64,000 nucleotides of DNA. Origin: an uncultured delta proteobacterium (lineage in GTDB: Bacteria; Myxococcota_A; Polyangia; Polyangiales; Polyangiaceae). Of this stretch, positions 1,101-37,225 are shown one piece after another. Where the stretch lies: assembly GCA_963716725.1 (NCBI GenBank), contig CAVQUB010000005.1, positions 1 through 64,000 on the forward strand. Reading direction: 5' to 3'. Position 1 is the stretch's first letter. Every line of letters begins with the position of its first letter. The notes beneath the pieces were generated by a model that did not search any database, was not told where the DNA came from, and worked only from the letters and a program-made list of their open reading frames with translations. The position numbers and the translations under genes were made by a program.

Positions 1101-1387
1101 TCAGTGGTTGACGCCGAAGTTGTCGCCTGACGAGACGATCCGAGTGTACCTCGCGTCGCTCAGCCCGTAGTACGCCTTCGCTCCGTTATCGAGCGCCGAC
1201 CACGAGAGGTTCTCGCTTTCGCACTCGGGTGGCGAGCAGGCCGTCAAGTACACCTGCCACAGGTTGGCCAGCGTGGTGCGCTGCGCAGTTGGCGCGCTGT
1301 TGATGTCATAGAGGAAGTTCATCCAGTCGTACTCCACGCCGCGGTTTGCCGTGAGGCACTGGTTTTCTAGCCACTTCACTGGGGTCT
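1101..1387 (-). pseudogene. Orphan 3' fragment (~95 codons) of the HEXXH lipoprotein gene at 4594-6612
   Basis: Translates TPVKWLENQCLTANRGVEYDWMNFLYDINSAP...FGVNH*, near-identical to the C-terminus of 4594-6612; no start codon of its own. Confidence 0.9.
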
Positions 1388-1620
1388 TTGGTTGCCCCCG
1401 CCTCGCAGGTGCTCGGCGCGTCGCGGGGCGCGCGGAGGGGCTCGGTGCGCGCGCTGGCGCCTGCGCGCCTGCGGTCCCCCGCCAAGGCCGTGCTCGGGCG
1501 CGCCGTCGAAGGGCGCGATGAGCGGCTGGCGCGCTCTGCGCGCGGCCGGGGGGGACTCTGTCGCTGGTGGCGCGACAGCTTGCCGGTGGCGGGAGCGTGC
1601 GCTGGGGCGATGGGCATCGG
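1388..1620. repeat. Structured intergenic element E1, copy b
   Basis: Near-identical to 3176-3408. Starts TTGGTTGCCCCC, has hairpin CGCC-TCGC-AGGT-GCTC-GGCG and a GTCCCCC...GGGGGAC stem. Confidence 0.8.
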
Positions 1621-2785
1621 TCAGTCGGTGGACGCGTCGGGTGGGGACGCGTCGGGGGTAGAAGCGTCGGGGGTGGTGAGCAGGCTGCGGACGAGGCGGA
1701 AGCCGCCGCCGGGGGCGTGTGAGGGCCTCGAGACCGCGAAGTGAGCGGCCGCGCGACAGCGCGACGAGAATGTGATCGGGCCACACCCACGAAGCACGAC
1801 GGCCTCGATCGTGTCCTTGATTCTCGATCTTGCCCCATGGGTCCACGAGCGGCTCAGTGCCGTAGCCGAGGCCCTTCATCGGGTCGTTGGTCCACTCGTA
1901 GATGTTGCCCAGGGTGTCGAAGAGGCCCCAGGGGTTCTTCTTCTTCAGGCCCCCCGGGTGCGTCAGGCCGCCGGTCAGGCCGCCCGAGTTGAAGCAGTAC
2001 CACTCGGCACTCGCGAGGTTGGGGTCTTCCGCGCACTCGCCGAGGTCGCTGAGCGTCTTGATCGGACCCGTGTAGAAGGCCGTCGTGGTCCCGGCACGGA
2101 CCGCGTACTCCCACTCGGCCTCGCCGGGGAGGCGGTAGCCCTCGCACTCGTAGTAGGTGGGCGCGGTGGTGCCGATCTTGGTGCAGGCCATGCCCTCGCC
2201 GAGCTGTCCGGTGCAACCCTCAAGCACGTAGCAGGGCTTCAGGCCTTCCTTCTGCGAGAGCAGGTTGGCAAACCCCGCCGCCTCGAACCATGTCACGTTG
2301 CCGACGGGGCAAGCGGGCTCGAGGCAGTCGCCCGCATGGGTCGGCTTTGGCGGAGGACCGCTCGGATTCTTCAGGCCGAGGGCGACCCAGTCGGCCTGAG
2401 AGGTCTCCTTCTGCTGGATCAGGAACGGGTGGGTGAGCGTGACCTTCACCTGATTCTCGGTGTTGGCGCCGCGGCCCCACTCGTCTTTCGGCGAGCCCAT
2501 CACGAAGCAGCCGGCTGGGATGCGGCACCAGCCGGACTTGCAGTCCTCGGTGACCGGCGCGTGCTCGCAGTCGAAGCTCGGGCCGGAATCGGCGTCCGCT
2601 GCTGCGTCGGTGCCGCTGTCCGCTGCCGACCCCCCCGCGCCGCCCGAGGCCGAGCTTCCGCCCGAGCTCGAGGTGGCGCCGGTGCCTGGTTGACCGCCCG
2701 CGGGCGGTGCGGAGCTGCCGCCGCCGTCGCTGCACGAGCAGCCGGCGAGGCACGAGGCGATCAACCAGGCGAGGGTGCTGCGCAT
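1621..2785 (-). pseudogene. FGE/SUMF1-domain lipoprotein, array copy 2, with a +1 frameshift near 1815-1830
   Basis: Same N-terminus as the other copies. The conserved end (IEAVVLRG...GFRLVRSLLTTPDAS...STD*) is in another frame ending at 1621; total length 1165 nt = 3n+1. Could be a sequencing error. Confidence 0.8.
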
Positions 2786-2793
2786 GGGGGGCT

Positions 2794-3175
2794 TCAGTGG
2801 TTGACGCCGAAGTTGTCGCCGCTCGCGACGAGCTTCAGGTAGCGTGGCTCAAACTGCCCGTAGTACGCCTTCGCCCCGTTATCGAGCGCCGACCACGAGA
2901 GGTTCTCGCTTTCGCACTCGGGTGGCGAGCAGGCCGTCAAGTACACCTGCCACAGGTTGGCCAGCGTGGTGCGCTGCGCAGTTGGCGCGCTGTTGATGTC
3001 ATAGAGGAAGTTCATCCAGTCGTACTCCACGCCGCGGTTCGCCGTGAGGCACTGGTTTTCTAGCCACTTCACTGGGGTCTTGCAGTTCACGGCGACCGGG
3101 GGTTGCTGCACGGCGTACGAGCTGTCCATGAACTCCTTGTAGTACCCGAAGGCGCAGTCGGACTGCTCTTGATGC
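2794..3175 (-). pseudogene. Longer orphan 3' fragment (~127 codons) of the HEXXH lipoprotein gene
   Basis: HQEQSDCAFGYYKEFMDSSY...FGVNH* matches the C-terminus of 4594-6612. Confidence 0.9.
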
Positions 3176-3408
3176 TTGGTTGCCCCCGCCTCGCAGGTGC
3201 TCGGCGCCGCGCGGTGCGCGCGGAAAGGCTCGGTGCACGCGCTGGCGCCTGCGCGCCTGCGGTCCCCCGCCAAGGCCGTGCTCGGGCGCGCCGTCGATGG
3301 GCCCGATGAGCGGCTCGCGCGCCCTGCGCGCGGCCGGGGGGGACTCTGGCGTTGGTGGCGCGAGACCTTGGCGGCGGCGGGGGCGTGCGCTGATGCAACG
3401 AGCATCGG
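3176..3408. repeat. Structured intergenic element E1, copy a
   Basis: Direct repeat of 1388-1620, abutting the truncation point of the gene fragment. Confidence 0.8.
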
Positions 3409-4587
3409 TCAGTCGGTGGACGCGTCGGGTGGCGCGGCGTCGGGGGACGCGTCGGGTGGGGACGCGTCGGGCGTCGAGGCGTCGGGCGTGGTGAGCAGGC
3501 TGCGGACGAGGCGGAAGCCGATGCCGCCGCCGCGATCGGAGCGGCCGCCGCTGAAGTGGCCAGCCGAGCGACACCGGGCACCACGGGAAATCGGTCCGCC
3601 GCCACGAAGAACGACTGCTTCGATGGGAGCCAGGATTTGCTGCTGACCCCACGGATCGACCAGAGGCGCTGTGCCGTAACCCAGTCCCTTCATCACGTCG
3701 TTGGTCCACTCGTGCGCGTTCCCGAGCACGTCGTGAAGGCCCCAAGCATTCTTCGTCTTCTCTCCCCCGGGGTGCGTGAGCGTACCGGAGTTCGCGCAGT
3801 ACCAAGCGGCCTTCACGAGGTTGGGATCGAGCTCGCAGTCCGAGGTCTGCGCCAGCTTGGTGATCGGACCCGTGTAGAAGGCCGTCGTGGTCCCTGCCCG
3901 CGCGGCGTATTCCCACTCGGCCTCGCCGGGCAGGCGGTACCCCTCGCACTCGTAGTAGGTGGGCGCGGTGGTGCCGATCTGGGTGCAGGCCATGCCCTCG
4001 CCGAGCTGTCCGGTGCAGCCCTCGAGCACGTAGCAGGGCTTCAGGCCCTCCTTCTGCGAGAGCAGGTTGGCAAACCCCGCCGCCTCGAACCACGTCACGT
4101 TGCCGACGGGGCAAGCGGGCTCGAGGCAGTCGCCGGAGTTGCCGGGTTTGATCGGAGCGGTGCTGGGATTCTTCAGGCCGAGGGCGACCCAGTCGGCCTG
4201 AGAGGTCTCCCTCTGCTGGATCAGGAACGGGTGGGTGAGCGCGACCTTCACCTGGTTCTCGTCGTTGGCGCCGCGGCCCCACTCGTCTTTCGGCGAGCCC
4301 ATCACGAAACAGCCGCCCGGGATGCGGCACCAGCCGGCCTTGCAGTCTTCGACCACCGGCGCGTGCTGACAGTCGAAGGTCGGGCCGGCGTCCGCGTCTG
4401 TTGCGGCGTCTGTGCCAGCCTCGGTGGCTGCGCCCCCGGTGCCCCCCGAGCCCGAGCTTCCGCCCGAGCTCGAGGTGGCGCCGGTGCCCGGTTGACCGCC
4501 TGAGGGCGCTGCAGAGCTGCCGCCGCCGTCGCTGCACGAGCAGCCGGCGAGGCACGAGGCGATCAACCAGGCGAGGGAGCTGCGCAT
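3409..4587 (-). CDS. FGE/SUMF1-domain lipoprotein, array copy 1
   Basis: 392 aa. Lipobox LAGC, Gly/Ser linker, FVMGS, PVGNVTWFEA, RLPGEAEWEYAARAG, WGLHDVLGNAHEW, RGG, GFRLVR, then a PDAS-repeat tail. Confidence 0.9.
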   Translation of the reverse strand: MRSSLAWLIASCLAGCSCSDGGGSSAAPSGGQPGTGATSSSGGSSGSGGTGGAATEAGTDAATDADAGPTFDCQHAPVVEDCKAGWCRIPGGCFVMGSPKDEWGRGANDENQVKVALTHPFLIQQRETSQADWVALGLKNPSTAPIKPGNSGDCLEPACPVGNVTWFEAAGFANLLSQKEGLKPCYVLEGCTGQLGEGMACTQIGTTAPTYYECEGYRLPGEAEWEYAARAGTTTAFYTGPITKLAQTSDCELDPNLVKAAWYCANSGTLTHPGGEKTKNAWGLHDVLGNAHEWTNDVMKGLGYGTAPLVDPWGQQQILAPIEAVVLRGGGPISRGARCRSAGHFSGGRSDRGGGIGFRLVRSLLTTPDASTPDASPPDASPDAAPPDASTD

Positions 4588-4593
4588 CGGGCC

Positions 4594-6612
4594 TCAGTGG
4601 TTGACGCCGAAGTCGCTGCCGGATTGGTGCAAGTGAGTGTAGCGAGCATCGGTGATGCCGTAGTACGCCTTCGCGCCATTATCGAGCGCCGACCACGAGA
4701 GGTTCTCGCTTTCGCACTCGGGTGGGGAGCAGGCCGTCAAGTACACCTGCCACAGGTTGCTCAGGCTGGTGCGCTGGGCTGTCGGTGCCGAGTTGATGTC
4801 ATACAAGAAGTTCATCCAGTCGTACTCCACGCCGCGGTTTGCGGTGAGGCACTGGTTCTCGAGCCACTTCACTGGGGTCTTGCAGTTCACGGCGACCGGG
4901 GGTTGCTGCACCACGTAAGAGCTGTCCATGAACTCCTTGTAGTATCCGAAGGCGCAGTCGGACTGCTCCTGATGATTGAAGATCCGGCTTGCGTACAGGT
5001 GCGCGAAACCCTCCGACGCACCCGCGCCGATGACCTCTTGCGATTGCAAGCAATGGTACTGGTTGGAAGAAGCCACGTGGTCGCAGCGGCAGAGCGACTG
5101 CGATGTCGGGTTGTCGTAGTCGGTCGTCAGGTTGCCCATGCCGAAGCCCTGCACCGTATGCCCGAACTCGTGGCCCACCACGAACTTGCTCCACGCGTCC
5201 GAGGGGTCCAAGGTGTTCTTTCGCCCGATGCAGATCGTGCTCTCTTTCAGCGCATGACTGGTCGACGCCCACGAGATGGGCGGCTCGCCGCCGCCCGACG
5301 AGCAATCGATGTTGTTCGAGCTCGGATCGCGCGTCGTCACTCGGATGTGCCCCTGGCTCAGCCCGTGATCGGGCATGTCGAACATTCTACCCCCGACCAC
5401 CAGGATGTTCGAGGCCACCGTGGTCAAGTAGACGCCGACCTGCACCGTGCTGGGCGCCGGGCCCGGGTGGACGTCGAAGAGCGTGCGGGCGTAGCCCACC
5501 ACCGGCGTGTTGGGCGGAGCGCCGCCATAGTCGAAGCTCTGCTCCGTCTCGACATCCATGGTCACCGCCCCGCTGTTGGTCTGAGTGCGCAGCTTGGACG
5601 CAAGAGTCAACCCGTAGGTGCCCGCCGGCAAATCCATGGTGGGCGTGCAGCCCGACGACCCAAGCCAGCCTGCCCACACCGCTTGACCGGTGTCGTAGTT
5701 CTCGAGCAGCGCTGCGGTGTACCGCGCCGGCTCCGCGTTGAAGCCGTTCATCCAGAAGTAGTCCTCGCCCACGCTGGCGTCGTAGAACTTCCACGTGTGG
5801 GACGCGCACACCTTCGTTGGGCCCGGTGGGCCGTCGAGGGGGGTGCCGGGCGCCGGCACACTGGCGGGCCACGCCTCCCAGAAGTCGACAGAGCCCCGGA
5901 TCTGGTAGCCCGCGCCGCCCACCGGCGGAAGCGAGGCGACGGGCACGAAGCTGCTGCCGTTCCAGACGTCACCTTGTGGCGTGAGCAGCGTCGCGTCCAG
6001 CGCCGCGAGCTGCATCCGCTCCTGGCGCGGGTCCCGCGGGTTCGACAGAGCGAAGCGCCGGGCGGTGGAGCCCCAGAGCGTGATCGTCGAGAGCCCCGGC
6101 TCGAACTCGTACGCCAGGCGCGACGTGGTGAGCTGGCGCTGAGCGCGCCCCTTGTAGAGCTGCAGGCTGGCGTGGACGCTGCTCACCGAGCCCACGGAGC
6201 GGATCGGGAGCCACGACAGGTCGATGGGCACCGTGAACGACGCGCGCGCGGGGACCACCAGGCTGCCCAGGAAGATGGACGCCTTTCGGGTTTCGAGGCC
6301 GAAGCTCTCGAGGGTGACCCCGACCGTGACGTCTTCGCCAGCGTTGTTGCTCATCACCAGACCGAAGCTCGCCGGCAGTGCCAGGCGTGAGTGGACGTCG
6401 AGGTCCACCCAGTCCGCCGAGACCCACGGCGCGCTGGCGCCGCCCTCGGGGATGTACACGCCGTTGACTCGCTGGCTGTTGGTCGAGACGGGTGCCTCTT
6501 CGTGACGGCCACAGCCTTCCAGGGCACCCAGCGCCGCCAGCGAGCAGAGCCACACCGCGATTCGTCCGCGGCGGCGGCGTTCGATTTTCTTCCGTGCAAG
6601 GTTCGTCTCCAT
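4594..6612 (-). CDS. Secreted lipoprotein, putative zinc metalloprotease
   Basis: 672 aa. Lipobox LEGC, VVGHEFGH (HEXXH) with downstream SEGFA glutamate (gluzincin-like), many Cys. Confidence 0.7.
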   Translation of the reverse strand: METNLARKKIERRRRGRIAVWLCSLAALGALEGCGRHEEAPVSTNSQRVNGVYIPEGGASAPWVSADWVDLDVHSRLALPASFGLVMSNNAGEDVTVGVTLESFGLETRKASIFLGSLVVPARASFTVPIDLSWLPIRSVGSVSSVHASLQLYKGRAQRQLTTSRLAYEFEPGLSTITLWGSTARRFALSNPRDPRQERMQLAALDATLLTPQGDVWNGSSFVPVASLPPVGGAGYQIRGSVDFWEAWPASVPAPGTPLDGPPGPTKVCASHTWKFYDASVGEDYFWMNGFNAEPARYTAALLENYDTGQAVWAGWLGSSGCTPTMDLPAGTYGLTLASKLRTQTNSGAVTMDVETEQSFDYGGAPPNTPVVGYARTLFDVHPGPAPSTVQVGVYLTTVASNILVVGGRMFDMPDHGLSQGHIRVTTRDPSSNNIDCSSGGGEPPISWASTSHALKESTICIGRKNTLDPSDAWSKFVVGHEFGHTVQGFGMGNLTTDYDNPTSQSLCRCDHVASSNQYHCLQSQEVIGAGASEGFAHLYASRIFNHQEQSDCAFGYYKEFMDSSYVVQQPPVAVNCKTPVKWLENQCLTANRGVEYDWMNFLYDINSAPTAQRTSLSNLWQVYLTACSPPECESENLSWSALDNGAKAYYGITDARYTHLHQSGSDFGVNH

Positions 6613-9845: not shown

Positions 9846-9873
9846 GTGAGCGTTGGACGATGGTCGGGGGGCC

Positions 9874-10128
9874 ATGTCGTCTCGGACGCAGTCCCACGCC
9901 AAAGAGCTCGAGCGCACCTACGGCGACGGCGAGTGCATCGTCGAAGAGGGGGACCACTCCCGGGACATGTTCGTGATCCAGACCGGACGGGTGCGCATCA
10001 GCAAGAAGGTCGGCGAGCGCCAGGTGGAGCTGGCGACCCTGGAGCGCGGCGACTTCTTCGGGGAGATGTCGCTGCTCGAATCACTGCCGCGCGACGCGAC
10101 GGCGCGCGCCGTGGGTGCCACGGAGCTG
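9874..10128 (+). pseudogene. Truncated cyclic-nucleotide-binding (Crp-like) domain gene, fused in frame to a transposase fragment
   Basis: EEGD...MFVIQTGRVRI...GDFFGEMSLL...PRDATARA cNMP motifs. Confidence 0.8.
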
Positions 10129-11308
10129 CCGCTCGTGCTCGACGGCGTGTACGTGCATCAGGACGACGACCCGAGCGCTCCGCTCGAGTTCCGCGAGCTC
10201 GACACGCCATCGCACGCCGACATCGCGGAGGTCGCGTCACGCACGGCGACACGCATCGAGAAGATCCTGCGCGCGCACGGACGGAGCCTCGACCCCGAGC
10301 TCGACGACGGCTCACCACCCGACCTCGCCCTCGACGAGCCCGGCCTCGCTGCCTGCTACGCCGCTGCGGCCCGGGGCATCTCGGTCAGCGGAGACCGCGC
10401 CGGCCAGCCGCCGCTCCGACTCATCGCGTCGCCGGAGCCACCCGCGCGCCCTCGCGCCGTCGACGCGACCGACCAGCCCATCGTCGACGCGACCGACCAG
10501 CCCATCGCCGAGGTCCGCGGCATCAACATCCACGCCGTGCAGGTCGTGGACGGCCGGGATCGCCGGAGAGTGGAGCGGCTCTGCAAGTACATTACACGCC
10601 CTCCCGTCGCGCAGGACCGCCTCGAGCGCCGCGCGGACGGCAAGCTCGAGCTCGGCTTCAAGCGGGCGTGGCGGGACGGCACGCGCGCGCTCGTGTTCGA
10701 GCCCGCGGACATCATCCCGCGTCTGGTCGCCGCGGTGCCGCCGCCACGATTCCATTTGCTCCGCTACTTCGGCGTCTTGTCGAGCCACTCTTCGCGGCGC
10801 CGGCTCGTCGTCCCGACGCCCACGCGCGACGCGACCGCGAACAAGCCCCCTCCCGCGCGCGGCGATCAGCTCGAGCTGCTCGGCGAGCGGGACGACGCGC
10901 CGGCGCCGCGCAACCGCTGGGCGTGGCTGCTCGCGCATGTCTTCGCCGCCGACGTCGAGACCTGCCCGCGCTGCTCGGGTCCGATGCGCTGGGCCGAGCT
11001 CGCCAAGACGCGCGCGGAGAGCACCCGCTTGCTCGCGGAGCATGGCCTCGGGCCGCGAGCGCCACCGGTCGAGCACGCGAAGGTGCGCGTGCCCGAGCAG
11101 TTGATGTTGGGGTTCGGGGAGGGGTGAGGCGTCGGTGAGCGCCTCGCCGAGGGCGGAGCTGTGTCCTGCGCCGGGCGCGACGCGGAGAAGCTCTGCCGAA
11201 CGGCGCCTTTCGGCCGCCCCGCAGGGGTTCGTGGGCAGCACTCGACCCGACCATCGACGCCGCGTACCCTTCGACTCGGTGGAATTTGGCAGTTCGATTG
11301 CCTTACGC
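10129..11308 (+). mobile_element. IS91/ISCR-family (HUH Y2-type) transposase 3' relic with an oriIS-like end
   Basis: LVLDGVY, ERLCKYITRPPVA..RL, LKR.WRDGT-like, RLVAAVPPPRFHLLRYFGVL, CPRC. End motif GCAGTTCGATTGCCTTACGC (11289-11308) resembles ISCR oriIS. 24-bp tandem duplication at ~10459-10506. Confidence 0.85.
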
Positions 11309-11524
11309 GCCGCTTGTCGTGTGGCCTTTCGTCATCGCGACGATCTCCGCGAAGTCGAGATCGAAGGTCAGCACCGCGCGACCCCCTGCAACGGCCTTCG
11401 CGAAGATATCGCCATTTGGAAGCCGATGGAGCCCCTGGTCACCGAGATGGATTACGTCGTCACCGCGGTCGCGAAGCCATTGGACGACCCGGTGGCTCAC
11501 GCCCATGTCCGCCAAGAAGCGCAC
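11303..11524 (-). pseudogene. DUF5615-type PIN-like toxin, 3'-truncated at the ISCR end
   Basis: MRFLADM..S....WLR..G.DV.H...L...D..IF......R.VLTFDLDF pattern; ends after 73 aa at the element junction. Confidence 0.7.
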
Positions 11525-11527
11525 GCG

Positions 11528-11752: not shown

Positions 11753-11808
11753 GACCGCAGTCTACGCCGTTTTGAACCGGCGTGCCCGCGGCTCGCAAGT
11801 CCCCAGAC

Positions 11809-25952: not shown

Positions 25953-28900
25953 GTGCTGAAGAGCGGGCTCGCCGAGTTCCGATTCTTCCCTGGGAAGTCG
26001 GCGACCAGCTTCGGCGCCAAGGTCCAGATCCCCACGGTTCCGAACGTCGACTTCGACGACCCGAACGTGCAGCTCGCGGATCTGGACGGCGACCGCCGCG
26101 CAGACGCGGTGATCTCGGCGGCGAGCGGGTGGGCCGTGGCCTACAACCTGGGCGGAAGCGACTTCGCCGCGCCCGCGAAGCTGGGCGTGATCGACGCGAA
26201 GCAAACGCTCCACTTCGCCGATGGCCACACCTCGCTCTGCGACGTCAACGGCGATCGCGTCGAGGACGTCTGCTACTTGATCCCGGGTTCGCTCGCCTAC
26301 TGGCTCGGACGCGGTCGGGGCGTCTTCGAGCCCGCGGCGTCGGGAAGCGGCGTGCCCACGTTCGAGGCCTCGAGCCCTTGGGAGCTCCGCGACCTGAACG
26401 GCGACGGCTGGGTCGATCTCGTGCACGTCGGCGTGGGCCAGGTGCGCTTCGCCCTCGCCGTGGCGCCGGGCCAGTTCGGCCCCGAGCGCAGCATCGGTGG
26501 CGTCCCTCAGAAACTCCCGAGCACGGTTGTACGCTTCGCCGACATGAACGCTTCCGGCACTACCGACGTCGTGTGGGTCGACGTGACCGGAGCGCCGAGC
26601 GCCGCCTGGCGCTACCTCGAACTCTTCCCAAACGGTCGCGCCGGCCTACTGCGCAAGATCGACAACGGCTTCGGCGGCACAACCACCATCGCGTACGGCA
26701 CCGCCGCCCAGGACGCCGCCGCCGCCCGCGCCGCCGGCAAGCCTTGGGACACACGGATCAACGTCGCGCTGCCCGTGGTGAAGGGCGTTCGGTTCGACAG
26801 CGGGCTCTCGGATCCTGCCCAGACGACGGAGTACGTCTACCAGGACGGCTCCTACGACGTCGCCGCACGCACCTTCGCCGGGTTCGGGGGCGGCGAAGAG
26901 ACCGTCGTCGGCGACTCGAGCACGCCGACTTTGATCACCAGCAGCCGCTTCGACGTCGGGCTCGTGCACCGCGTGCTGCGCGGTGCGGTGCTCAGCGTCG
27001 AGACCCGAAGCGAGACGGGGAAACTCTTCACGCGTGTGGAGAACCAGCACGCTGTCTTGCCGGTGGCCAAGGGTCTCGACGGCCGCGCCATCGAGTACGC
27101 CTACCGCTCGAGCGAGGCGAAGCAGATCGCGGAGGGCGTCGACCCCGCGCTCGCGCGGCACACGCTCGCGGAGTGGGAGCACGACGAGTGGGGGAACGAG
27201 ATCGCCCATCGTGACTTCGGCGAGGTGGTCGCCGGTGACGTGCTGGCGGGCAACGACGAGCGCATCACGCTGGCGACCTACGCTCAAGACACGGCGAACT
27301 GGGTCCTCGGGCGCCCCGCAACCCGCGAGGTGCAGAGCGCCGCGGGCAAGCGTTTCTCGCTCGTCCGGACGTACTACGACGGCAAGGCCTTCGAGGGGCT
27401 CTCGCTGGGAAAAGTGATGCGCGGTGACGCCACCCGCATCGAGCAATGGGCCGGTCCGGAGAAGGATCGGTTCGTCCTCACCACCGCAAACGCGCACGAC
27501 GCCCACGGCAACGTGACCGAGAGCCGTGACGCGGCCGCCGGTGCCCGGCGCTTCGCGTGGGATCCGGTCGACCACACGTCGCTGCTCGGCGAGACGCTCG
27601 TGCTCGAGGGCCGCGAGCTCGAGGCCACCACCCAGGTGCACCGGCCGAGCGGCAAGCCGCTGAGCGTGACCGGATTCGACGGGCAGAAGACCCTCTTGGC
27701 GTACGACGCGCTCGGCCGACTGACGGCCATCGCGCGGCCGGGCGACACTCTGGAAGCGCCGACCTTGGCGTACGAGTACCTGCTGAGCGCGCCGCTGTCG
27801 CGCATCGTCACTCGTTCGCGAATCTGGAGCGGAAAGGACGAAGTCGAGATCCAGGAGAGCCTGATCGATTCGCGCGGCAAGAGCCGCGGCCGGATGTTGC
27901 GTGACGGCGCGGAGCGTTGGGTGCTGGACGGGGTTACGCTCTTCGATGCGCGCGGCAACGCCCGACGCGACGTTTTACCTCGCTTCCTGACCCTGGCGGA
28001 GCACGACTCGCCGCCGCTCCTCGACGAAGCCCCTGGCACCCAGCAGCGACGCGACGCCATCGGGCGAGTCATCGAGCGGCGCCTGCCCAGCGGCATCCAG
28101 AGTCGGATCGAATACATGCCCCTCGGCAAACGGACGTGGGACGGGGCGGCGAACGATCCCGCCTCGCCCTACGAGCACACCCCCGCGGTGGAGGCGATGG
28201 ATGGGCTGGGCCGGCTTCTGTCCATCTCGCACACGCTCGAAGGCAAGCTCCTGACGGAGAGCTACGAGTACGACGCGGCCGACAACCTCTTGTCGAAGGT
28301 CGATCCCGAGGGACACGTGTCGCGCTTCGCCTACGACGGCCGCGGCCTTCGGATCGCCATCGACGACCCGGACGCCGGCAAGCACACGCTCGCATACGAC
28401 GACGCCGGCAACCTGGTCGAGCACCGACGGCCCGACGGCACCATCGGTCGCGACCGCTTCGACCGCTTGGGGCGCAAGCTGAGCGAGGACTGGGACGGCG
28501 ACGGCGAGCCCGAGGTCGAGCTCGAGTACGACGAGCACCCGGACCGCCCCGGGGACCCGAGCGCGCGCGGCCGGCTGGTGATCACGCGGGACGCGAGCGG
28601 CTCGATCACGCGGAGCTACGACCCGCGCGGGAACGTGGTGCGCCTGCACCAGATCGTCGAGGGCGAGAGCTACGTGTCCGAGATGCGCTACGACGCGCAA
28701 GACCGGCTCTATCTCCATGGTTACCCTGACGGTTCGTCGCTCCGGCTCCACCGCAACGAGCGCGGGCAAATCTCCCGTTACGGCAGAGCAGTGGAGATCG
28801 CCCTCGACGCCGACGGGCAGGAGACGCAACGCACGTTCAACACCGGCGTCACCCAGCTGTTCGGCTACGACGACGATCGCCTGCCGCGCGCGAGCCGAGT

Positions 28901-30671
28901 CAAGGCGCCCGACGGCGGCGTCCTGCAGGACCTCGAATGGGCGCGCGACGGCGCAGGCAACGTGCTGGAGGTGAAGGATCGCCGCGCCAGCATCGACTCC
29001 GCGACGGACCGCGGCGAGGTCTACGTCTACGACAACCTCTACCGCTTGCGCAGCGCGTCGGGCAGCTGGGGCGAGACCTCGTGGAGCTACTCGCCGAGCG
29101 GCAACCTGGTCCACAAGAAGAGCACGCTACCGGACGAGAACGCCGGTGACCTCGGATACGGCAAGTCCGCCGGCCCCCACGCCATGACCCGGTACCGCGG
29201 GCGGACCCTGGCCTACGACCCGATGGGTCGGATCATCGACGACGGCGTGCGCAAGTACCGTTGGGACGCCTTCAGCAACCTGATCGCCGTCGAGACCAAC
29301 CAGGCCTCGGTCGAGAGCACGTTCGGGCAAGACCACGAGCGTCGGGTCAAAGTCGAGCGCGGCGCGGACGGTCAAGAGCACCGCACTCACTTCCTCTCGC
29401 CGTGGAGCGAGGTGCGCGACGGGGAACTCGTGCGCTTCATCGTGCACGAGGGTCAGCGCATCGCGCGGCTCGGCCCCGGCACCGGAAGGCCGGCGGCGCT
29501 CGGACCACTGCCGGAAAACGGCGGTCCCACCTCGCCCTGGCCGTTCTTCTTCATCGCGCTCGTGCCGGCCATCGAGCTCCTGCGCGGGCAGCGCCGCTGG
29601 GCCAGTGCGCACGCGCTCGCGGCGGTGGCGCTCCTCGGCTGCAGCGGGGACGACGCAAGCCGGAACGCCTCGCCCTCCGAGGGTACCGTGCTCACGCTGG
29701 GCGCGGACGACGCCCTGCTCTTCCATGATGGCCTCGGGTCGCTGACGGAGGTGGTGCGCGCGACGGGCGAGCGGCTCGCGAGCGTGGCCGTGTATCCGTA
29801 CGGGCGCACGCGCTACGACGACGCGAGCGAGACCGACAAGTACACGGGGGTGCCCCGCGACGGCAGCGTCGAGGTCGATCACATGCAGGCGCGCTGGTAC
29901 GTGCCGGAGCTCGGCGTCTGGAGCAGCGTCGATCCGCTGAACTGGCTCGACCCGACCAAGAAGGCGGGTTTGGCGTTCGCGACGGGAAACCCGTACGCTT
30001 ACGCGGGCGGGCAGCCGACGACGCTGACGGACCGGAGTGGGGAGTGTGGGCCGTGCGTGTTTGTCGTCGTGGGTCTCGCGGGCCTCGCGTCGGGCATCGC
30101 TGCCAACTCCGAATACAATCGACAGATCAAGGCCCGTGAGCCCTCGAGCCTTCCGAAGATGATCGCGGCCAGCGTGATCGCTGGCGAGGGTTCTCTGCTG
30201 AGCAGCCAAATCCCAGTGGCTGGTGTGTTCGGCGAGTCGTTCGCGGGTGCAATGACTCTCGGGGCGATCCGAGGCTCCGCAGTGTCAGCAGGAACTTACG
30301 GTGCAACGGTCGCCGCCACCGGGCAGCCCTTCGACAACGAGTACTTCTCGAAGACCGTCGCGTGGGGCGGGGTTTCTGGCGCCTTCAGCGGCATGCTGTC
30401 CCAGGGAAAAGCGAACTGGGACACGTCGGGCTGGACGGCCGCCCAGGTCGAATCCGGCCACAAGCAGCACCAGATCGCGTCGAGCTTGATCTCCGGGCAG
30501 ACCAGTACGCTCAAGTCCACCGTGTTCCTACCCTCACCCAAGCCCAGCCCGAGCTCGGCGCCCAAGCCCGCGGTGCAGTCTTGGGTGTACTCCTACTCGG
30601 TTTCGAGAAGCGTCGAGGGAACGAACACCGCCGAGTGGACCGACAACATGGTGAAGGAAGTGCAGCGGTAA
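25953..30671 (+). CDS. TcdB-like/Rhs (YD-repeat) toxin with FG-GAP repeats, probably 5'-truncated
   Basis: DLDGD/DVNGD repeats, GLLRKIDNGFGG, YD repeats, Rhs core end ARWYVPELGVWSSVDP...NPYAYAGGQP..LTDRSG, then a ~205-aa hydrophobic C-terminal domain. The frame opens mid-repeat after a stop near 25854. Confidence 0.85.
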   Translation: MLKSGLAEFRFFPGKSATSFGAKVQIPTVPNVDFDDPNVQLADLDGDRRADAVISAASGWAVAYNLGGSDFAAPAKLGVIDAKQTLHFADGHTSLCDVNGDRVEDVCYLIPGSLAYWLGRGRGVFEPAASGSGVPTFEASSPWELRDLNGDGWVDLVHVGVGQVRFALAVAPGQFGPERSIGGVPQKLPSTVVRFADMNASGTTDVVWVDVTGAPSAAWRYLELFPNGRAGLLRKIDNGFGGTTTIAYGTAAQDAAAARAAGKPWDTRINVALPVVKGVRFDSGLSDPAQTTEYVYQDGSYDVAARTFAGFGGGEETVVGDSSTPTLITSSRFDVGLVHRVLRGAVLSVETRSETGKLFTRVENQHAVLPVAKGLDGRAIEYAYRSSEAKQIAEGVDPALARHTLAEWEHDEWGNEIAHRDFGEVVAGDVLAGNDERITLATYAQDTANWVLGRPATREVQSAAGKRFSLVRTYYDGKAFEGLSLGKVMRGDATRIEQWAGPEKDRFVLTTANAHDAHGNVTESRDAAAGARRFAWDPVDHTSLLGETLVLEGRELEATTQVHRPSGKPLSVTGFDGQKTLLAYDALGRLTAIARPGDTLEAPTLAYEYLLSAPLSRIVTRSRIWSGKDEVEIQESLIDSRGKSRGRMLRDGAERWVLDGVTLFDARGNARRDVLPRFLTLAEHDSPPLLDEAPGTQQRRDAIGRVIERRLPSGIQSRIEYMPLGKRTWDGAANDPASPYEHTPAVEAMDGLGRLLSISHTLEGKLLTESYEYDAADNLLSKVDPEGHVSRFAYDGRGLRIAIDDPDAGKHTLAYDDAGNLVEHRRPDGTIGRDRFDRLGRKLSEDWDGDGEPEVELEYDEHPDRPGDPSARGRLVITRDASGSITRSYDPRGNVVRLHQIVEGESYVSEMRYDAQDRLYLHGYPDGSSLRLHRNERGQISRYGRAVEIALDADGQETQRTFNTGVTQLFGYDDDRLPRASRVKAPDGGVLQDLEWARDGAGNVLEVKDRRASIDSATDRGEVYVYDNLYRLRSASGSWGETSWSYSPSGNLVHKKSTLPDENAGDLGYGKSAGPHAMTRYRGRTLAYDPMGRIIDDGVRKYRWDAFSNLIAVETNQASVESTFGQDHERRVKVERGADGQEHRTHFLSPWSEVRDGELVRFIVHEGQRIARLGPGTGRPAALGPLPENGGPTSPWPFFFIALVPAIELLRGQRRWASAHALAAVALLGCSGDDASRNASPSEGTVLTLGADDALLFHDGLGSLTEVVRATGERLASVAVYPYGRTRYDDASETDKYTGVPRDGSVEVDHMQARWYVPELGVWSSVDPLNWLDPTKKAGLAFATGNPYAYAGGQPTTLTDRSGECGPCVFVVVGLAGLASGIAANSEYNRQIKAREPSSLPKMIAASVIAGEGSLLSSQIPVAGVFGESFAGAMTLGAIRGSAVSAGTYGATVAATGQPFDNEYFSKTVAWGGVSGAFSGMLSQGKANWDTSGWTAAQVESGHKQHQIASSLISGQTSTLKSTVFLPSPKPSPSSAPKPAVQSWVYSYSVSRSVEGTNTAEWTDNMVKEVQR

Positions 30672-31514: not shown

Positions 31515-34500
31515 GCATAGGTGAAATGAACGGGGGGTGGTTGGTGAGCTGGCGCGTCTGAACGTCGAATCGGCTGCTGTTGAAGGAGCGAGCAGCGCGC
31601 GGAGCAGTCTCGGCAGTCTCGATTCGCCTCGCGGCGCCATCCTTTTCACCGCTGACACCACCATCGTTCCGGTCTCGGAGAATACCAGGCACACGACCGC
31701 CCTGCACGTCGCGAGCATCGCAATGCATCACTCACCGAACATATCCAGCTGCGGGAGCGAGTCGCTGTCGAGCTCGCCGAACCTCCGGCGCAGCGCCGGG
31801 CTCGTGAAGAACGGCGGTCTTCGCGCTGGCGCGATGGGAGGAGGCTCGGCATCCTCTCCGAGCCTGCGCAGGAAGCGCGTCACGGTCTGGGCCGCAGTGA
31901 CCATCCCCCCGCCGGGGATGCCCCTCCGGGCACTTTCAAGGATCGTCACGAAGCGCGTCGCGCGGAGCAGCATGGGTGCGCCGCACTTGGCACATTTCTC
32001 GCTGTCGATTTTGAAAGTGCGCTTGAGGAGCTCACGCCACGGGCGATAAGTCGAGCGATGCGTCGCCGGTCGTGCGGCGGTGGCGGTCTCATCGTGAATG
32101 TGGGCAGGAGCACGCGCAGGGTTCGTGGTGGCACAGTCGTGCACCGGTGGCGGAGGTGGAGCGACTCTGGTTCTCCAGCGATGAGCTGCAGCGAGCACCC
32201 CCGAGTCCCCCGTCGGGGACTTCCCAGGGTCGTAATGGACGCGATGGGCGCGTGGGGCAGGCACCGAGGCGGCTAGCCGGAGAAGAAACGACAACGGATC
32301 GAGATCGATGGCCGTGGTGCCGTCGGAGAACGGTCGCTTGAGCAGGATGCGACGCGCTTCGCGACGATCCTTGAAAGTGCCCGGAGGGGCATCCCCGAAG
32401 GGGGGCACGAGCCCACTTCCGAGTCGACGCACTCGGTCTTGCGCGAGCGGCGGGCGTAGGACGTACTTGCAGAGGGTTTCGCGAGCACGCGCGTCCTCCC
32501 CCGTCGGGGACTTCCCAGGAGCCGCTTCGGAACACCCGGAGGGCTCATGATTGATCGGATCCCATCTGGGACCGGGCAGCTCGGAAGCCGATCTCGTAGT
32601 CGAGGAGCTTCTGGTAGCCCCGTCCTAACGTTTGCCACCCGGGTGCGCCGTTGTTCTTCAGATGCCCGCCGAGTCGCGCGACAGCGAATAGCGCTTGCTC
32701 AATGGTCTGCGGGACGGCCGGGAGGCGGAGCTTGAACTTTATGAGGAGCAACTGGGGCTCACTCAGGATCGTTGTTGCCGGTTGCTCGGGTGCGACGCGG
32801 GCTAACGAGCGCATGAGCAACAGGCGCCAGGCGATGGGCAGGAACACGGCGAGCGCGTTGCTCAGTGCCTGATACGACTCGAGCTGTCGTTTCTCGAGAG
32901 AACACCCTTGCTTGAGTGCCTTGAAGAACTCTTCGATCACCCACCGACTGCGGTAACAGTCCACGACGGTCGCGAGTTCGGCGACGGTGTCAATGGGTTC
33001 GGTAGTGAGCAGCACCCACTCGACCGACGGCTCGCCTTCTGGTGGTTGGAGTTCCCAGACTCGAACCACGTTGAGTTCGATGCTGCGCGTCTCATGTCGA
33101 GTGTTGCGGGGGCGCAGCACAGTCAAACGTTTGCCTGCCACGGCGACCTCCGCGCTCCGGGCGTTGCGAGACGGGTGCTCTTTTGCAGCATGCGCGCGAC
33201 TGCTCGGTTTCCTCGATGACACCGAGATCGTGCGAAAAAACTGCGGTTCGAGCGTTGAGATTGCACTGCGCAAGCAGATGCCTATTTCCTCAGTTACTCG
33301 GTCGTGAGCCGAACGGATGACGTAGCGCGCACCGAGTTCCTGCGCCTTCGCCAGGACCTCGAAAATGTCCGCTTCGCGGTCCATCACGTGAATGAGCGCG
33401 CTGCCGGGGCAGCGTGCATGGACGGCCTCGAGCATGGCCGGCCAGCGCAGTGATTCGCGCTCGGGGTCTCTCCGACTGACAGACCGGCGGCGCCCGCGTC
33501 CACCCTTGTGTACGAGGCGGACGTGTCGCTGTAGACCCAGAACTCCGAGTGGCACTCGCTCCTCGCCGGGAAGCACGGCCAGCGCCACGTGTGCGAGAAA
33601 CCCCTGGCTGCCGCCGGACGTGACGCCCAACCCAGCTCGCCGACTGGCGCCGCCGAGCGATACTTCGGTCGTATCGTGCGCGACGATACACAGGCCAGCG
33701 GAACTCACACGCTCCACCGTCGCCGACAGGTGCGGGTCAAGGATCTGCTCCGCGTCGAACTGCTCGTTGCGCAGGAATCGGTAGACTCCCTCAAGCTCGG
33801 ACGGAGTGTCGACAGCCTGCGGAAACCCAACACCGGGCGCCGCCATCAGTTTCTCAGCGAGCCAACCGAGCCTGTCACTGCGCCGCTTATCGCCGAGCTG
33901 AGAGCCCTCGAACTCGTCCGAAATCGACCGCCCTAACCATTCTGTTGCCGGCATTTCTCCCGTAGATCACACGCGCCGTCCGCTCGCAATGAGATGTGTT
34001 TGATCATGAGCCGGAGGGGTGGTCCTCGCCGGGAGCCGTGGTGGCCGCATGCACCGAGAAGCCGTCCTCGCGGGCGGCCAGACCGGAAACGGAGAGCTCG
34101 CCGCGATCGGGCAGTGCGATGGCGGGACGCTGCCGATGCTCGGGCCCCGCCGGAGGGTTGCCGGTGACGGCGGCGGTGGCGAGTGCGGCCAGCTCGGGCT
34201 CGCGCTCGGCGAAACCGTCGTCGGTGAGGCAGAGCTCGTTGTCTCGTTCGACGACGCCGCGACGCGCGAGAAAGTCCAAGATGCGCACGCGGGCGGCGTG
34301 CAAGAGATCTGCGACGTCGGAGTTGGAGAGCGCGGGGAGCTGGTGGAAGACGAGGCTCCCGTCATCGGTCTCGAGGAAGACTCCGTCCAACGCGAGCAGG
34401 TGCAGGTGGGGGTTGAGTCGGAGGTCGGAATTCACGCGTTGCACAGCGGTGATCGCGCCGCTCTGGCCTTTGCCCACGCGGTAGAGGTCGCGCATCGTGC

Positions 34501-35242
34501 GGCGGTAGAAGCCGAGCACGCTGTCGGCGAACAGTCGCGTGATCCGGCTGAGCAGCTCGCGGTCGTAGGCGACGCGGGCGCGGAGCTCGAACGGCAAGGT
34601 GAGAACCCACTGCCTGAGCGGAGCACGCGACGGCAGAACATGGTCGATCCAATTCGCCGCTGACTCGGCCATCGTTCTGCCCAGGCACGAGGGGCACCAT
34701 GCGCGTCCCTTGCAAGAAAACGCGACCAAGAGCTTCGCGCGGCACTTCGGGTCTTGGCATTGAAGAAATCCAAAACCGTGCGCCAGGATTCCGCACTCGA
34801 GGTAGCCCTCGAACTCATCCCTCACGAACGCCGGCAACAGCGCGATGATCTCTTGGTCTGCGGCGGCTTCGAGCGTGCGGTAGTTCTCGGCGACGACCTG
34901 GTAGAAGTCGCTGAGCTCCGGTCGCCGGCGTCGATATTCGACGCCGCTGCCATCCGAAGTTGCGTCCGAGATCGGCAGCGCGGCGGCCATCGCCGCGCCC
35001 GAGCGCACACGGCGTGCCGACCCCGCCCGGGGCGAGAACGCCGCAAATTACCGTGTTGCAGGCGCTCGGGTGGGTGGCGAAACGCCGGCCGCCGGCGGCG
35101 GCCGCCACTGCCCACCGCTGCGCGCTACCCCGCCGCCGCCGCGAACCCCAGCGACTCACCCGCTTCCGGCGCTCGCATCACCAGCATCAGACGCGTCCGT
35201 TCCCTGGCAAGCCAGGGTCCGAAGCTCGTGAACCACGCCGGC
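31515..35242 (-). mobile_element. Near full-length IS91/ISCR-family element interrupted by IS4 and four mini-insertion sites
   Basis: N-half 34027-35008 (FSCKGR.WCPSC, RQWVLTLP, LRLNPHLHLLALDG = HUH). C-half 31728-32497 (ETLCKYVLRPPLA, KRPFSDGT, CAKCG). oriIS-like GTTCATTTCACCTATGC at ~31518-31534. Confidence 0.85.
32544..34010 (-). mobile_element. Intact IS4-family (IS50/Tn5-like) insertion sequence, 1467 bp; transposase 32545-33954
   Basis: Terminal IRs CTCATGAT; 8-bp target duplication CCGGAGGG at 32536-32543 and 34011-34018; LGDKRR, HDTT, MDREAD and YRSRWVIEEFFKALK (YREK) motifs. Confidence 0.92.
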
Positions 35243-35608
35243 TCGAGCCCGGCACCACGCGCCCAAGAGCGCGACCGAAAGCCCTGCCATCCTCGGCCCG
35301 AGCTCACGTCGCAGGATCAATCGCAGTGGAACTCGCTGCCAAAACAACTGCGAACGTGTCTGTCCATTCCCGAAGGAAACCCCCGTCCGCCTGAGCGGGA
35401 CGATCCAACGCGCCACCTCGGCCCAAATCGGAGCCGCCCATGAGCAGTACGTGTTCGTTCCGGATCCGCCGCCCGGAACGAGCGGCAACTGACGTAGCGG
35501 GCGTGCTCGTGCGTGCGCCCAGGTTTTCCGATGAGCGCGCAGTGGCGCTCATGTGGGAGGCTCGGTGCACAAACACCCCCCCCCGCCTCCGCGCTCCGAG
35601 CCCCGCCA

Positions 35609-37225
35609 CTACTCCGAGCAACCCAACCCCAGCGGGCCCGCCGTCAGCAAATACTTCGGGCTAGGGCACGACTTCACGCAGACGGGCAGGTTGCAACCCG
35701 CGCTGCCGCGCGGCACCACGTAGGTGCAGCCGCCGGCGCCGCAGCCGTGCTTCACGCCGGTGGCGGCGTCTTGGCCGAAGCCTTGTTTCGGAGCGGTCAC
35801 GCAGAAGCCGAAGATGTTCACCTTGCCGGCCGGGCATCCGCTGTTCTGCGCGACGGGGCAGGTGTTGAAGTGACGCGGGCTGCCGTCGGGGCAGGGCGGC
35901 ACGCAGATCGGGATGCCGCTGTCGGGCACCAAGCCGGGCGGGCAGTCGCCGGGGCTGGGCGTGGGCGGCGTCGGCTCGCCGGGTTTGTTCGGCTTGTCGC
36001 CGCCGCTCGGCGTGCTGACGTCGACCAGGTACGAGTAGCGCAGGTTGGTCTTCAGCGTGTTCTCGTGGATCCAGGCGTAGCCGCCGTCGCCCCACTTGGG
36101 GCCCCAGCTGTTGTGGATCAAGAAATAGGTGCCGTTGCCCTGGGTCTTGTAGCCCGACAGCACCATCGCGTGTCCCGAGCCCGAGTGACGGAAGTCACCG
36201 TCGGGGATCACCGCCGGCGAACCCTTCACGCTCTGGAACGCGTCGTCGACCCACATCGCGAACCAAACGTCTTGGCCTTTGGCGATGGTGGCCTTGATCT
36301 CGGAGATGTCCCCGTCGGGCAGGCGCGTGACGTTGGTGACCTTCGCCGTCTGCGCCGAGTCGAGCTGGCCGAGCTTCTGGCTGTCCACGGGCTGCTGACA
36401 CGAGACGTTGAGCATCGAGCCGCAATCGCAGCCCCCACCTGACCAATATTTGCAGGCCTCGACCTTGTCGTAGGGCCACGCGCTCTCGTTGCCGAGGGAC
36501 TTGCCCTTGTTCGACGAGGTTGCGTCTTGCATCGACGGCACGTGATAGCGCGCCCACACTTGCATCACGCTGACGTTGCCCGGCTTGCTGGTCGTGGTCG
36601 CGATGGCGTGGTCGATGGCCGTCGCGAAGGAGAAGGCCGTGCACGCGCCGACGGGACCTTGATTGCGCACCGGGCCCTCGGTGCCCGCCGCACGGTGGTC
36701 GACCGCGGCCGGCAACGCGTCGGCGCCCTCGTGGGCGGGGCTCACGTTGAAGGCTTGGCGTCGCACCACATACTGGCTCGCCTCGGCCACGGTGCCGTAG
36801 GTCGGAGTCATGCAGTCGAGCAAGAACTGCTCACCGCCGATGTTCGCTACGCCACAACCCTTGATGCCCTTGGCGGCCGGAGGCGGCGCGGGCTGCCCAC
36901 CGGGCGCGGTTGGGTTCGGCTGCGTCGGAAACCCGGGGATGGGCGGGATGGGAATTCCGCCGAGGCTGCCCCAGCCGGGGGGCGGCGCGGGCAACTGGAA
37001 CGCCGACGCGGGCGGCGGGGGCGGCAGCTGGAAGCCCCAGAAGGGCGCGGGGGCGGGCGCGGCCGCGGCCGGAGGTGGCGCCATCGGGGGCGGCGGGTTC
37101 TGCGCCACCGCGTAGCCGCCAGGATATGCCGCGGGCTGGGTGGCGGAGCGTCCGTTTCCGGTCGTGCAACCGTGAGTCAGACCCAGTGTGACGAGCGCGA
37201 GGGCGATGGTTCGATGGGTGGTCAA
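35609..37225 (-). CDS. Papain-like C1-family cysteine peptidase lipoprotein
   Basis: VRNQGPVGACTAFS, GHAMVLSGY, FLIHNSWG.KWGDGGY; Pro-rich linker and Cys-rich C-terminus; TTG start inferred. Confidence 0.88.
   Translation of the reverse strand: MTTHRTIALALVTLGLTHGCTTGNGRSATQPAAYPGGYAVAQNPPPPMAPPPAAAAPAPAPFWGFQLPPPPPASAFQLPAPPPGWGSLGGIPIPPIPGFPTQPNPTAPGGQPAPPPAAKGIKGCGVANIGGEQFLLDCMTPTYGTVAEASQYVVRRQAFNVSPAHEGADALPAAVDHRAAGTEGPVRNQGPVGACTAFSFATAIDHAIATTTSKPGNVSVMQVWARYHVPSMQDATSSNKGKSLGNESAWPYDKVEACKYWSGGGCDCGSMLNVSCQQPVDSQKLGQLDSAQTAKVTNVTRLPDGDISEIKATIAKGQDVWFAMWVDDAFQSVKGSPAVIPDGDFRHSGSGHAMVLSGYKTQGNGTYFLIHNSWGPKWGDGGYAWIHENTLKTNLRYSYLVDVSTPSGGDKPNKPGEPTPPTPSPGDCPPGLVPDSGIPICVPPCPDGSPRHFNTCPVAQNSGCPAGKVNIFGFCVTAPKQGFGQDAATGVKHGCGAGGCTYVVPRGSAGCNLPVCVKSCPSPKYLLTAGPLGLGCSE

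Follow-up and report, generated by a model that had tools for sequence, protein, structure and literature searches.

The window analysed here is a 64-kb stretch, i.e., the first 64 kb of contig CAVQUB010000005.1 (C5 below) of an uncultured delta proteobacterium of the Polyangiaceae. The genome (GCA_963716725.1, G000 below) is a metagenome-assembled genome of 7.9 Mb with 68% GC in 35 contigs, and it is 84% complete. At two loci of the window an intact gene, here called the anchor gene, is accompanied by copies of its own 3′ end, which abut a short structured repeat named E. The subject of this analysis is the E repeat, the joints at which it meets the gene tails, and its connection with IS91-family elements. 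Order-wide comparisons were made with a set of 201 genomes, and the Y2_Tnp domain was searched in 61 genomes of the family.

Locus 1 was resolved by self-BLAST into three units of about 1.8 kb on the minus strand. In alignment A1 the unit was laid out as E1, an FGE-sulfatase (FGE) gene, and a 3′ fragment of a gene with an HExxH motif. The features are as follows.

3-1094, minus strand: FGE-sulfatase-domain gene copy A, which runs off the contig start (Pfam PF03781, E 7.8e-29)
1101-1388, minus strand: HExxH-gene 3′ fragment of 288 nt, junction type A (alignment A1, breakpoint view)
1389-1585, plus strand: E1 copy A with a fixed 5′ end, a short imperfect hairpin and a long GC-rich stem (alignment, family search, folding)
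1376-2785, minus strand: FGE-sulfatase gene copy B, frameshifted (the Pfam match spans only positions 5-194 of the 255 of the profile, and the translation is nonsense beyond about residue 320)
2794-3178, minus strand: HExxH-gene 3′ fragment of 385 nt, junction type B (alignment A1, breakpoint view)
3177-3373, plus strand: E1 copy B (alignment A1, family search, folding)
3409-4587, minus strand: FGE-sulfatase gene copy C, with its stop codon just right of E1 (Pfam)
4594-6612, minus strand: intact anchor gene 1, 672 aa, recognized by its HEFGH motif

The self-BLAST pairs were 1-1388 with 3497-4881 (87%), 368-1388 with 2059-3081 (92%), and 1388-3178 with 3176-4978 (84%). No Pfam family was found for the HEFGH gene. 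Both 3′ fragments, i.e., the 288-nt and the 385-nt one, adjoin an identical E1 start, T(T)GGTTGCC. The exact break is ambiguous by the 1-3 nt that the two sides share, and the intact gene reads GGGGTCTT|GCAG and GATGATTG|AAG at these points. An earlier note on this DNA had read TTG at both E1 junctions. The junctions are real, but a clean TTG is not present in both. Junction types A and B both recur on contig C13, in a second HExxH/FGE array.

Two other explanations of this locus were rejected. E was ruled out as a coding sequence or fused domain because copy C of the FGE gene has its stop codon ahead of E and copy B carries a frameshift; the frames through E are of low complexity and rich in arginine. 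Mutagenic copying of the type known from diversity-generating retroelements was rejected by eye, i.e., the differences between fragments and intact gene are not restricted to adenines. The RVT_1 matches in the genome are found only at C1:285103 and C13:95334, far away.

Locus 2 has a C1-peptidase gene as anchor and carries E2 copies; the E3 copy of the window is listed with it.

11303-11761, minus strand: DUF433/DUF5615 gene pair, cargo, downstream of the 170-nt fragment (Pfam)
11807-11978, minus strand: C1-peptidase 3′ fragment, about 170 nt (self-BLAST, alignment A2)
11979-12106, plus strand: E2 copy (alignment A2, family search), with a GGCGATCGCCAC palindrome motif at 12164
12813-16400, plus strand: unit-1 cargo, i.e., a trypsin-like peptidase gene and two open reading frames (ORFs) (Pfam)
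16240-16714, minus strand: last 197 nt of the C1-peptidase gene and a copy of its downstream region (93% identity to 35333-35805)
16715-16842, plus strand: E2 copy (alignment A2, family search, folding)
22808-22880, plus strand: E3 copy, short form, whose left flank matches the flank of the purC locus on contig C34
35609-37378, minus strand: intact anchor gene 2, Peptidase_C1 (Pfam, E 1.5e-18), with an ortholog of conserved upstream gene order in genome G138

The two C1-peptidase fragments end ...GGCCGA| (11978) and ...CGCAGA| (16714), and each is then followed by TTTTCCTGCC. At the same points the intact gene reads ...GGCCGA|AGCC and ...CGCAGA|AGCC, just as the earlier note had given them (GCCGA^AGCC and GCAGA^AGCC). 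The 197-nt fragment lies within a 475-nt repeat (16240-16714 and 35333-35805) that also covers DNA downstream of the stop codon, and this repeat brackets E2 together with 18.6 kb. The 197-nt junction type is found again at C8:400516 and C8:408389. Between 12540-16424 and C1:278965-275072 the identity is 96%. The four junctions that had been proposed at the two loci were thus recovered by self-BLAST and alignments A1 and A2, although each locus holds only two junction types, which are themselves repeated on C13 and at the two C8 positions.

E1, E2 and E3 form one structured repeat family with 36 curated copies in the genome. By nhmmer and BLAST, 13 strong E2-type copies, the short E3 type and the E1 copies on C13 were recognized. 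A looser motif search added subtypes with the same start and other bodies, giving 58 matches versus 18 for the reversed pattern. The common build is T-N5-TGCC(Y)CCCC, followed by a short imperfect hairpin with a conserved TC/TC mismatch and by a long GC-rich stem. The structure was examined in 27 distinct copies, which had been chosen by a pattern that already demands the hairpin arms and the left arm of the stem. In the long stem, four fully compensated variants were found, and the right arm was complementary in all 24 copies in which it was detectable. The short hairpin shows a swap of G-C to C-G. These compensating changes support the shared hairpin and stem that the earlier note had described. 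The fold energy of E, over about 130 nt, is -55 to -87 kcal/mol with RNA parameters. The evidence on the folded strand is mixed: the bottom strand is the more stable one in 22 of the 27 copies, the top strand in both E1 copies, and two hairpin variants give A.C on the top strand and G.T on the bottom strand. No Rfam family matching E was found.

A 24-nt core pattern of E was present in seven of the 201 genomes. G000 has 17 hits, G138 10, G093 7, G158 2 and G150 1; single hits in G154 and G167 lack the rest of E, and the reversed control gave two hits in total. Among the same genomes, E was not found outside the genus and two neighbouring genera. Two further ideas about E were dropped. As a leader on the reverse strand with a ribosome-binding site before genes, E was not supported, i.e., the other flanks have no in-frame start, and what looks like a start codon 3 nt from E in G093 belongs to a hemB fragment, in which it is an internal Met. 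A relation to RAYT/REP was not supported either: there are two Y1_Tnp matches (C5:165574 and C5:499487), neither near E.

The joint of E to its left flank follows one rule across the genome. At least 12 independent junctions, which come from several E subtypes and from three species, place the end of the left flank 6 nt (5 nt for E1) before TGCC(Y)CCCC. The 6-nt break was found with gene tails of 45 and about 326 nt for hemB, 54 nt for purC, 193 nt for a YkuD gene, and 170, 197 and, in G138, 90 nt for the C1 peptidase; pairwise views added an ArsA-like gene and others. On the gene side of the joints, no motif was found in the pairwise junction views, and the first base past the break in the intact copy is mostly a purine. 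Of the junction motif that the earlier note had wanted derived, only the E half was found, as a fixed boundary.

In the flank test, the 200 nt left of each E were sought elsewhere in a copy that reaches the junction within 4 nt and is not followed by E. Such a copy was found for 31 of the 36 E copies, against 62 of 1000 random positions. On the same contig, in the same orientation and 1.4-55 kb rightward, it was found for 26 of 36, against 16 of 1000. The identified intact copies include hemB, purC, the YkuD gene, the ArsA-like gene and two peptidase genes. The flank repeats span 36 nt to about 1.5 kb (1540 nt), so that a partial anchor duplication flanks E and its cargo in the layout of the ISCR type. 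Some of the repeats are recent: the 212-nt YkuD repeat is 100% identical, and repeats on contig C22 are 98-99% identical. On C22, a discrete module of about 440 nt, i.e., repeat plus E, parts unrelated cargo. The 3′ end of the gene is directed at E in about nine of roughly ten cases that could be called by eye. The scan thus bears out genome-wide, and in the sister species, the fixed structured element with a variable partner that had been noticed at two loci.

At C32:143782-143834, a repeat of about 56 nt interrupts the ArsA-like fragment beside an E2 copy. It occurs at about 15 other places, with 87-100% copies on C13, C1, C4, C5, C15 and C6, and resembles a miniature mobile element.

The same kind of array was found in two sister species. 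Locus L031 of G138 is the ortholog of locus 2, with the upstream gene order kept at 74-87% identity (blastn). Three E copies are present there, each adjoining a 90-nt C1-peptidase tail, and the cargo differs from that of G000. One G138 fragment and its downstream DNA match 11752-11886 of the window (87%), with different breakpoints. The 197-nt C1-peptidase junction type is present in G093. A hemB fragment of about 338 nt adjoins E2 in G093, 5 kb from the intact hemB, and in G138 a 45-nt hemB piece lies 3.8 kb from its hemB. Each of these two anchors has three breakpoints, i.e., 90, 170 and 197 nt for the C1 peptidase and 45, about 326 and about 338 nt for hemB. At the orthologous loci of the C1 peptidase and hemB, the two species bear arrays of this kind with other breakpoints.

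The connection with IS91-family elements was seen in the complete copies. In IS91, terIS is on the upstream side of orf121/tnpA and has one subterminal palindrome where it is cut, and oriIS lies downstream beside the target tetranucleotide, i.e., the ori and ter ends are distinct (PMC13181058, in part). At C12:54067, C13:85895 and C34:147744, E precedes tnpA and a conserved left motif, the latter by 110-230 nt. The full left motif occurs nine times in the genome, and in seven it is followed by tnpA. The complete element C12:54067-56295 consists of E, tnpA with Zn_Tnp_IS91 and Y2_Tnp domains (54312-56111) and the right end, with E as the left boundary. On the left it is flanked by the final 193 nt of the YkuD gene, and the intact gene is found 14.6 kb rightward. 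An internally deleted mini-element with E, the end of tnpA and the right end is placed at C12:67604-68170 and has the same junction. In G093, contig C82 (2286 nt) is a complete copy, in which Y2_Tnp is flanked by E and the right end. E belongs physically to IS91-like elements, and the IS91/ISCR analogy drawn in the earlier note has a physical ground here: E lies upstream of tnpA and forms the left boundary of complete elements. The two ends are unlike and are not inverted repeats of each other, i.e., the left end is E with its hairpin and long stem, and the right end is ...GGTGGRWTTTGGCAG...CCTACGCGC.

The majority of E copies, and all of those in the window, are orphan ends that precede unrelated cargo. 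The E2 copies of the window retain a related GGCGATCGCCAC palindrome about 185 nt past the E start, without tnpA. The finding that is new in this comparison is that E forms the left end of complete IS91-family elements and is also present at the gene-tail joints of the arrays.

Four copies or fragments of Y2/Zn_Tnp_IS91 genes are found in the window, and 14 Y2_Tnp matches in the genome. An array built without an integrase, as the earlier note had it, stands in so far as no integrase is needed, but Y2 transposase genes are present. The IS91-like elements of the window are as follows.

10130-11310, plus strand: 5′-truncated IS91-like element with the C-terminal half of the Y2 transposase and the right end ...CCTTACGCGC
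20460-21766, plus strand: IS91-like element of a second subfamily, with a Y2_Tnp ORF at 20478-21491 and the right end ...TTTCCTACGCGCA
31532-35242, minus strand: IS91-like element, third subfamily, on the downstream side of the intact C1-peptidase gene

The right ends at 11310 (...CCTTACGCGC) and 21766 (...CCTACGCGCA) are not E-like, and E as the oriIS of the resident IS91-like elements was rejected on the ground that their right ends have a different sequence. The first element is 99.9% identical to copies on C13 and C8, and its right end faces the locus-2 array. Its copy begins at 10130 inside a host gene, and the open frame 9853-11127 (plus strand) fuses a cyclic-nucleotide-binding domain to the Y2 C-terminal half. 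The third element is split by an IS4/Tn5-like insertion sequence (32523-34022; DDE_Tnp_1, Tnp_DNA_bind), which sits inside the transposase gene and has 99-100% copies on C13, C4, C10, C5, C24 and C34. The 5′ part of this element is duplicated at 24599-25428 (99.6%). Beside that duplicate, 25401-25516 gives a partial tmRNA match of 34.5 bits, below the gathering score of 47, and 25428-25514 is a 97.7% copy of C5:275093-275179; this may be a displaced remnant of an attachment site.

In G138, five IS91-like copies of 100% identity stop at the same point on the right but at either of two points on the left, so that their length is 1.8 or 2.23 kb. In G000, the 99.9%-identical family likewise shares the right end, with left limits at four internal points. 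The right end therefore behaves as a fixed origin, with E on the ter side. By its position, E is accordingly best read as the terIS-side end and not as the origin that the earlier note had made of it. No target-site duplication was seen by eye at the flanks of the five G138 copies. The right flanks (five in G138 and 11 recognizable ends in G000) share no tetranucleotide, and all copies end ...ACGCGC, which could include the target.

Two side observations touch the elements themselves. At C13:110108-114477 and C8:413401-417264, partial IS91-like copies are placed head to tail, and their right ends join the same 63-nt stuffer and an internal tnpA point, as if the element itself had been amplified by a rolling circle or by unequal exchange. 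At C1:139678-142126, E2 is on the left and a 156-nt IS91-like right-end fragment on the right of two ORFs and a gyrB C-terminal fragment, with no transposase; this may be a non-autonomous two-ended element.

The reading preferred here, to which we give about an even chance, is that the E family represents the genus-restricted structured ends of IS91-family elements and that the arrays arose by enzymatic cutting and joining at E, then by homologous recombination. The cut or join site would be the outer E boundary, 6 nt before TGCC(Y)CCCC, with a partner site that has no clear motif. The enzyme would most likely be a Y2 transposase that acts in trans on the folded single strand. Blocks of E, cargo and the tail of the neighbour gene could then become tandem, or stack behind the intact anchor, by homologous recombination. 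One conceivable route is the re-entry of a circle in the manner of Campbell, the circle being formed by a pseudo-origin start in the gene and termination at E, or in reverse polarity. Another would be that an element transposes locally into the gene and that element copies then undergo unequal crossing-over. By either route, the intact gene would be restored and a promoterless 3′ fragment would be left against the next E. It is speculation that the orientation bias comes from selection against expressed 5′ fragments.

Several points weigh against this reading. A fixed ter-side E joined to variable sites requires a non-canonical step (a pseudo-origin start, or local insertion with unequal crossing-over), because the fixed start of IS91 is oriIS downstream of tnpA and its variable ends lie beyond terIS. 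No tnpA or IS91 right end was found next to the E1, E2 and E3 units of the window, and tnpA adjacency was seen for E6 and E3-like subtypes and not for E1. The better-folding strand is inconsistent among the E copies. Past the breaks no IS91-type target tetranucleotide is evident, i.e., AAAA, GGCC, GAAG, GAAC, GGAG, AGCC twice, GTCC, GTAC, GTTA and others were read. A paralog of the right flank of the C12 element is found on C20, and the DNA upstream of this paralog bears no relation to the left flank; with such non-contiguous flanks at the paralogous empty site, simple insertion of the complete C12 element was ruled out. In G158, which is 96% complete, two E-like copies were found but no Y2_Tnp match. 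Of the 61 family genomes, 41 have Y2 transposases, which are therefore not specific to the E-bearing ones; Y2_Tnp is too widespread in the family for a test of co-occurrence with E.

E could also be a non-autonomous origin, as was first proposed: a nick at its boundary, displacement into the anchor gene, a variable end, and a circle that re-enters by homology. Several breakpoints per anchor fit repeated read-through from one resident E, and one-ended rolling-circle events usually give a fixed start and variable ends (PMC13181058 and PMC5737581, both in part). Two palindromes lie beside the cut, as described for oriIS of IS91 and IS801, and the right end here has at most one short palindrome (PMC13181058, in part). 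However, E holds the terIS position upstream of tnpA, the resident copies share their right end and vary at the left, the supposed termination points have no conserved motif, and no circles were seen in the assembled contigs, the only material. E as an origin is regarded as unlikely. A wider version, in which circles of E, cargo and a homology arm from the tail of a conserved gene are made by a rolling-circle transposase acting in trans, move between strains and re-enter behind that gene by homologous recombination, as an integrase-free capture platform like an integron, is doubtful. If it were true, each entry would push older cassettes outward, giving exchangeable arrays with many toxin-antitoxin and peptidase genes behind anchors like hemB and purC.

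Islands at gene 3′ ends have the same geometry, i.e., direct repeats of the gene tail, an intact gene retained and housekeeping targets, so E might be an attC- or attP-like site of cassettes that bear a replacement gene 3′ end, are inserted in trans by a site-specific recombinase and accumulate in tandem. The genomes do hold integron-like arrays and 19 Phage_integrase matches, attC-like repeats lie among the E3 copies behind purC on C34, and the repeat plus E on C22 forms a discrete 440-nt module amid unrelated cargo. Yet contig C5 has none of the 19 tyrosine-recombinase (PF00589) matches, the closest to any E is 5 kb from C8:400516, and no recombinase was found among the cargo genes, either in the window or in the G138 array. 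Each target gene has several crossover positions with no common core sequence, E by inspection lacks the AAC...GTT boxes of attC, and E physically belongs to IS91-like elements; a recombinase is thus quite unlikely. An origin with no dedicated enzyme at all, in which replication stalls at the stable E hairpins and tandem duplications result from template switching at the base of the fold, is very unlikely. It would suit the very strong folding of E, the 0-3 nt shared at the junctions and the absence of a gene-side motif. Stalling would scatter the ends, but diverged subtypes and three species all break at the same nucleotide, which lies about 15 nt outside the first hairpin. The orientation is also constant, with the gene 3′ end toward E in about 9/10 of callable cases, and unrelated cargo between identical repeat-plus-E modules on C22 is not a simple product of slippage.

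Other features of the window concern the cargo. Toxin-antitoxin-type genes are abundant between E copies, i.e., DUF433/DUF5615, BrnT, MqsA-like, AbiEii, ParE, Zeta and DUF4258, at 11303-11761, 17361-17654 and 23020-23868 of the window and in the arrays of C1, C32 and C34. A 1572-aa ORF with RHS repeats, TcdB_toxin_midN and FG-GAP domains (25953-30671, plus strand) is located within the 18.6 kb that separate E2 (16715) from the intact C1-peptidase gene.

DNA of the organism was found in runs from 10 public studies of biofilter, groundwater, activated sludge, wastewater and sediment. In assembled contigs from four public runs, no new joints at E were found. A joint 16115>16520 in three runs is the paralogous C8 copy, and loose ends at 16714, 16244 and 11897 are the already known intact or C8 copies. 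For the IS91-like stretch 10006-11339, summed contig depth was above the surroundings in run X1 (55-64 versus about 8) and run X5 (36-39 versus about 5), lower in run X6 and mixed in run X7; this is only a hint of multiple copies.

IS91 and ISCR elements are known chiefly for the capture of resistance genes, and the pick-up and re-insertion of cargo is still argued from few plasmid structures. In the genus studied here, dozens of natural joints behind housekeeping genes of the chromosome are placed to the nucleotide, and sister species use the same anchors again. If the Y2 transposase cuts E, the arrays would be a record of its off-pathway reactions and would represent an integrase-free route that gathers small accessory genes at fixed chromosomal sites.

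Among known systems, IS91, IS801 and IS1294 resemble the complete E-bearing elements in having a Y2 transposase with a zinc-binding N-terminus; the E units of the window carry other cargo and would be non-autonomous. Two unlike ends, subterminal palindromes near the cuts, the lack of terminal inverted repeats, and length variants that share one end are also shared with the IS91 family. In that family, circles and co-mobilised flanking DNA are known; one-ended transposition occurs at 1-50%, upon failed termination, and the circles are single- and double-stranded and of the ori-ter type (PMC13181058, in part). Unlike in IS91, the recurrent fixed joint here is at the tnpA-upstream, ter-side end and not at oriIS, most E copies are orphans whose cargo lacks a transposase, and the DNA joined to E duplicates the tail of a gene nearby. 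No target of the CTTG/GTTC type was recognized in the flanks read, although the shared end ...ACGCGC could include one. In a limited literature search, which gave IS91/ISCR and Helitron work, no description of orphan IS91-type ends arrayed behind housekeeping genes was found.

The layout is like that of ISCR1 and complex class 1 integrons, in which an IS91-related element and variable cargo lie between partial copies of the 3′-CS anchor (PMC6218425, in part). The variable region of ISCR1 is on the oriIS side, and its ter-side joint is single and invariant, 24 bp after sul1, whereas the ter-side joint here varies per event and the fixed boundary is E upstream of tnpA rather than oriIS downstream (PMC6218425, in part). 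Unlike in complex class 1 integrons, the anchors here are chromosomal housekeeping or peptidase genes, and several units stack. The ISCR1 circle reportedly arises by rolling-circle read-through and re-enters by homology, in the account that is ascribed to Toleman et al. of 2006.

In the megaplasmid of Sphingobium herbicidovorans, circular-DNA sequencing gave an 11-kb IS91 cargo circle, several terIS were predicted and gene clusters are duplicated in tandem (PMC5737581, in part). IS91 elements with tandem duplications are thus common to both cases, although whole IS91 copies flank the duplications there, and an orphan structured end with a nucleotide-precise gene-tail joint, or housekeeping-gene arrays, are not described in the available part of that report (PMC5737581). 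Helitrons show only a resemblance: a terminator hairpin lies near one end, its bypass captures flanking gene fragments, and intermediates are circular (PMC4778049, in part). Most of their copies are non-autonomous, as most E copies are. Unlike the E arrays, they have a RepHel protein, are eukaryotic and do not duplicate the tail of an adjacent intact gene.

Genuine attC-like arrays elsewhere in the same genome look unlike the E arrays. An imperfect palindromic repeat of about 150 nt with AAC...GTT-type ends is arrayed at 400-1000 nt spacing in G000 (C7:149.7-156.6 kb, C8:385.3-392.8 kb and C34:138.7-151.5 kb) and in G138 (C1:669-729 kb and others, more than 130 copies). The G000 arrays adjoin tyrosine recombinases at C7:157688-158212 and C8:394212-394757. 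These arrays look like chromosomal integrons or integrase-less attC clusters. Compared with integrons and 3′-end islands, the E units have no integrase in or beside them, show several crossovers per gene and lack attC boxes in E. What they have in common with integron arrays and 3′-end islands is the stacking of small accessory units, many of them of toxin-antitoxin type, bounded by structured repeats at a fixed chromosomal point, and the tail repeats of the target genes resemble the att repeats of 3′-end islands.

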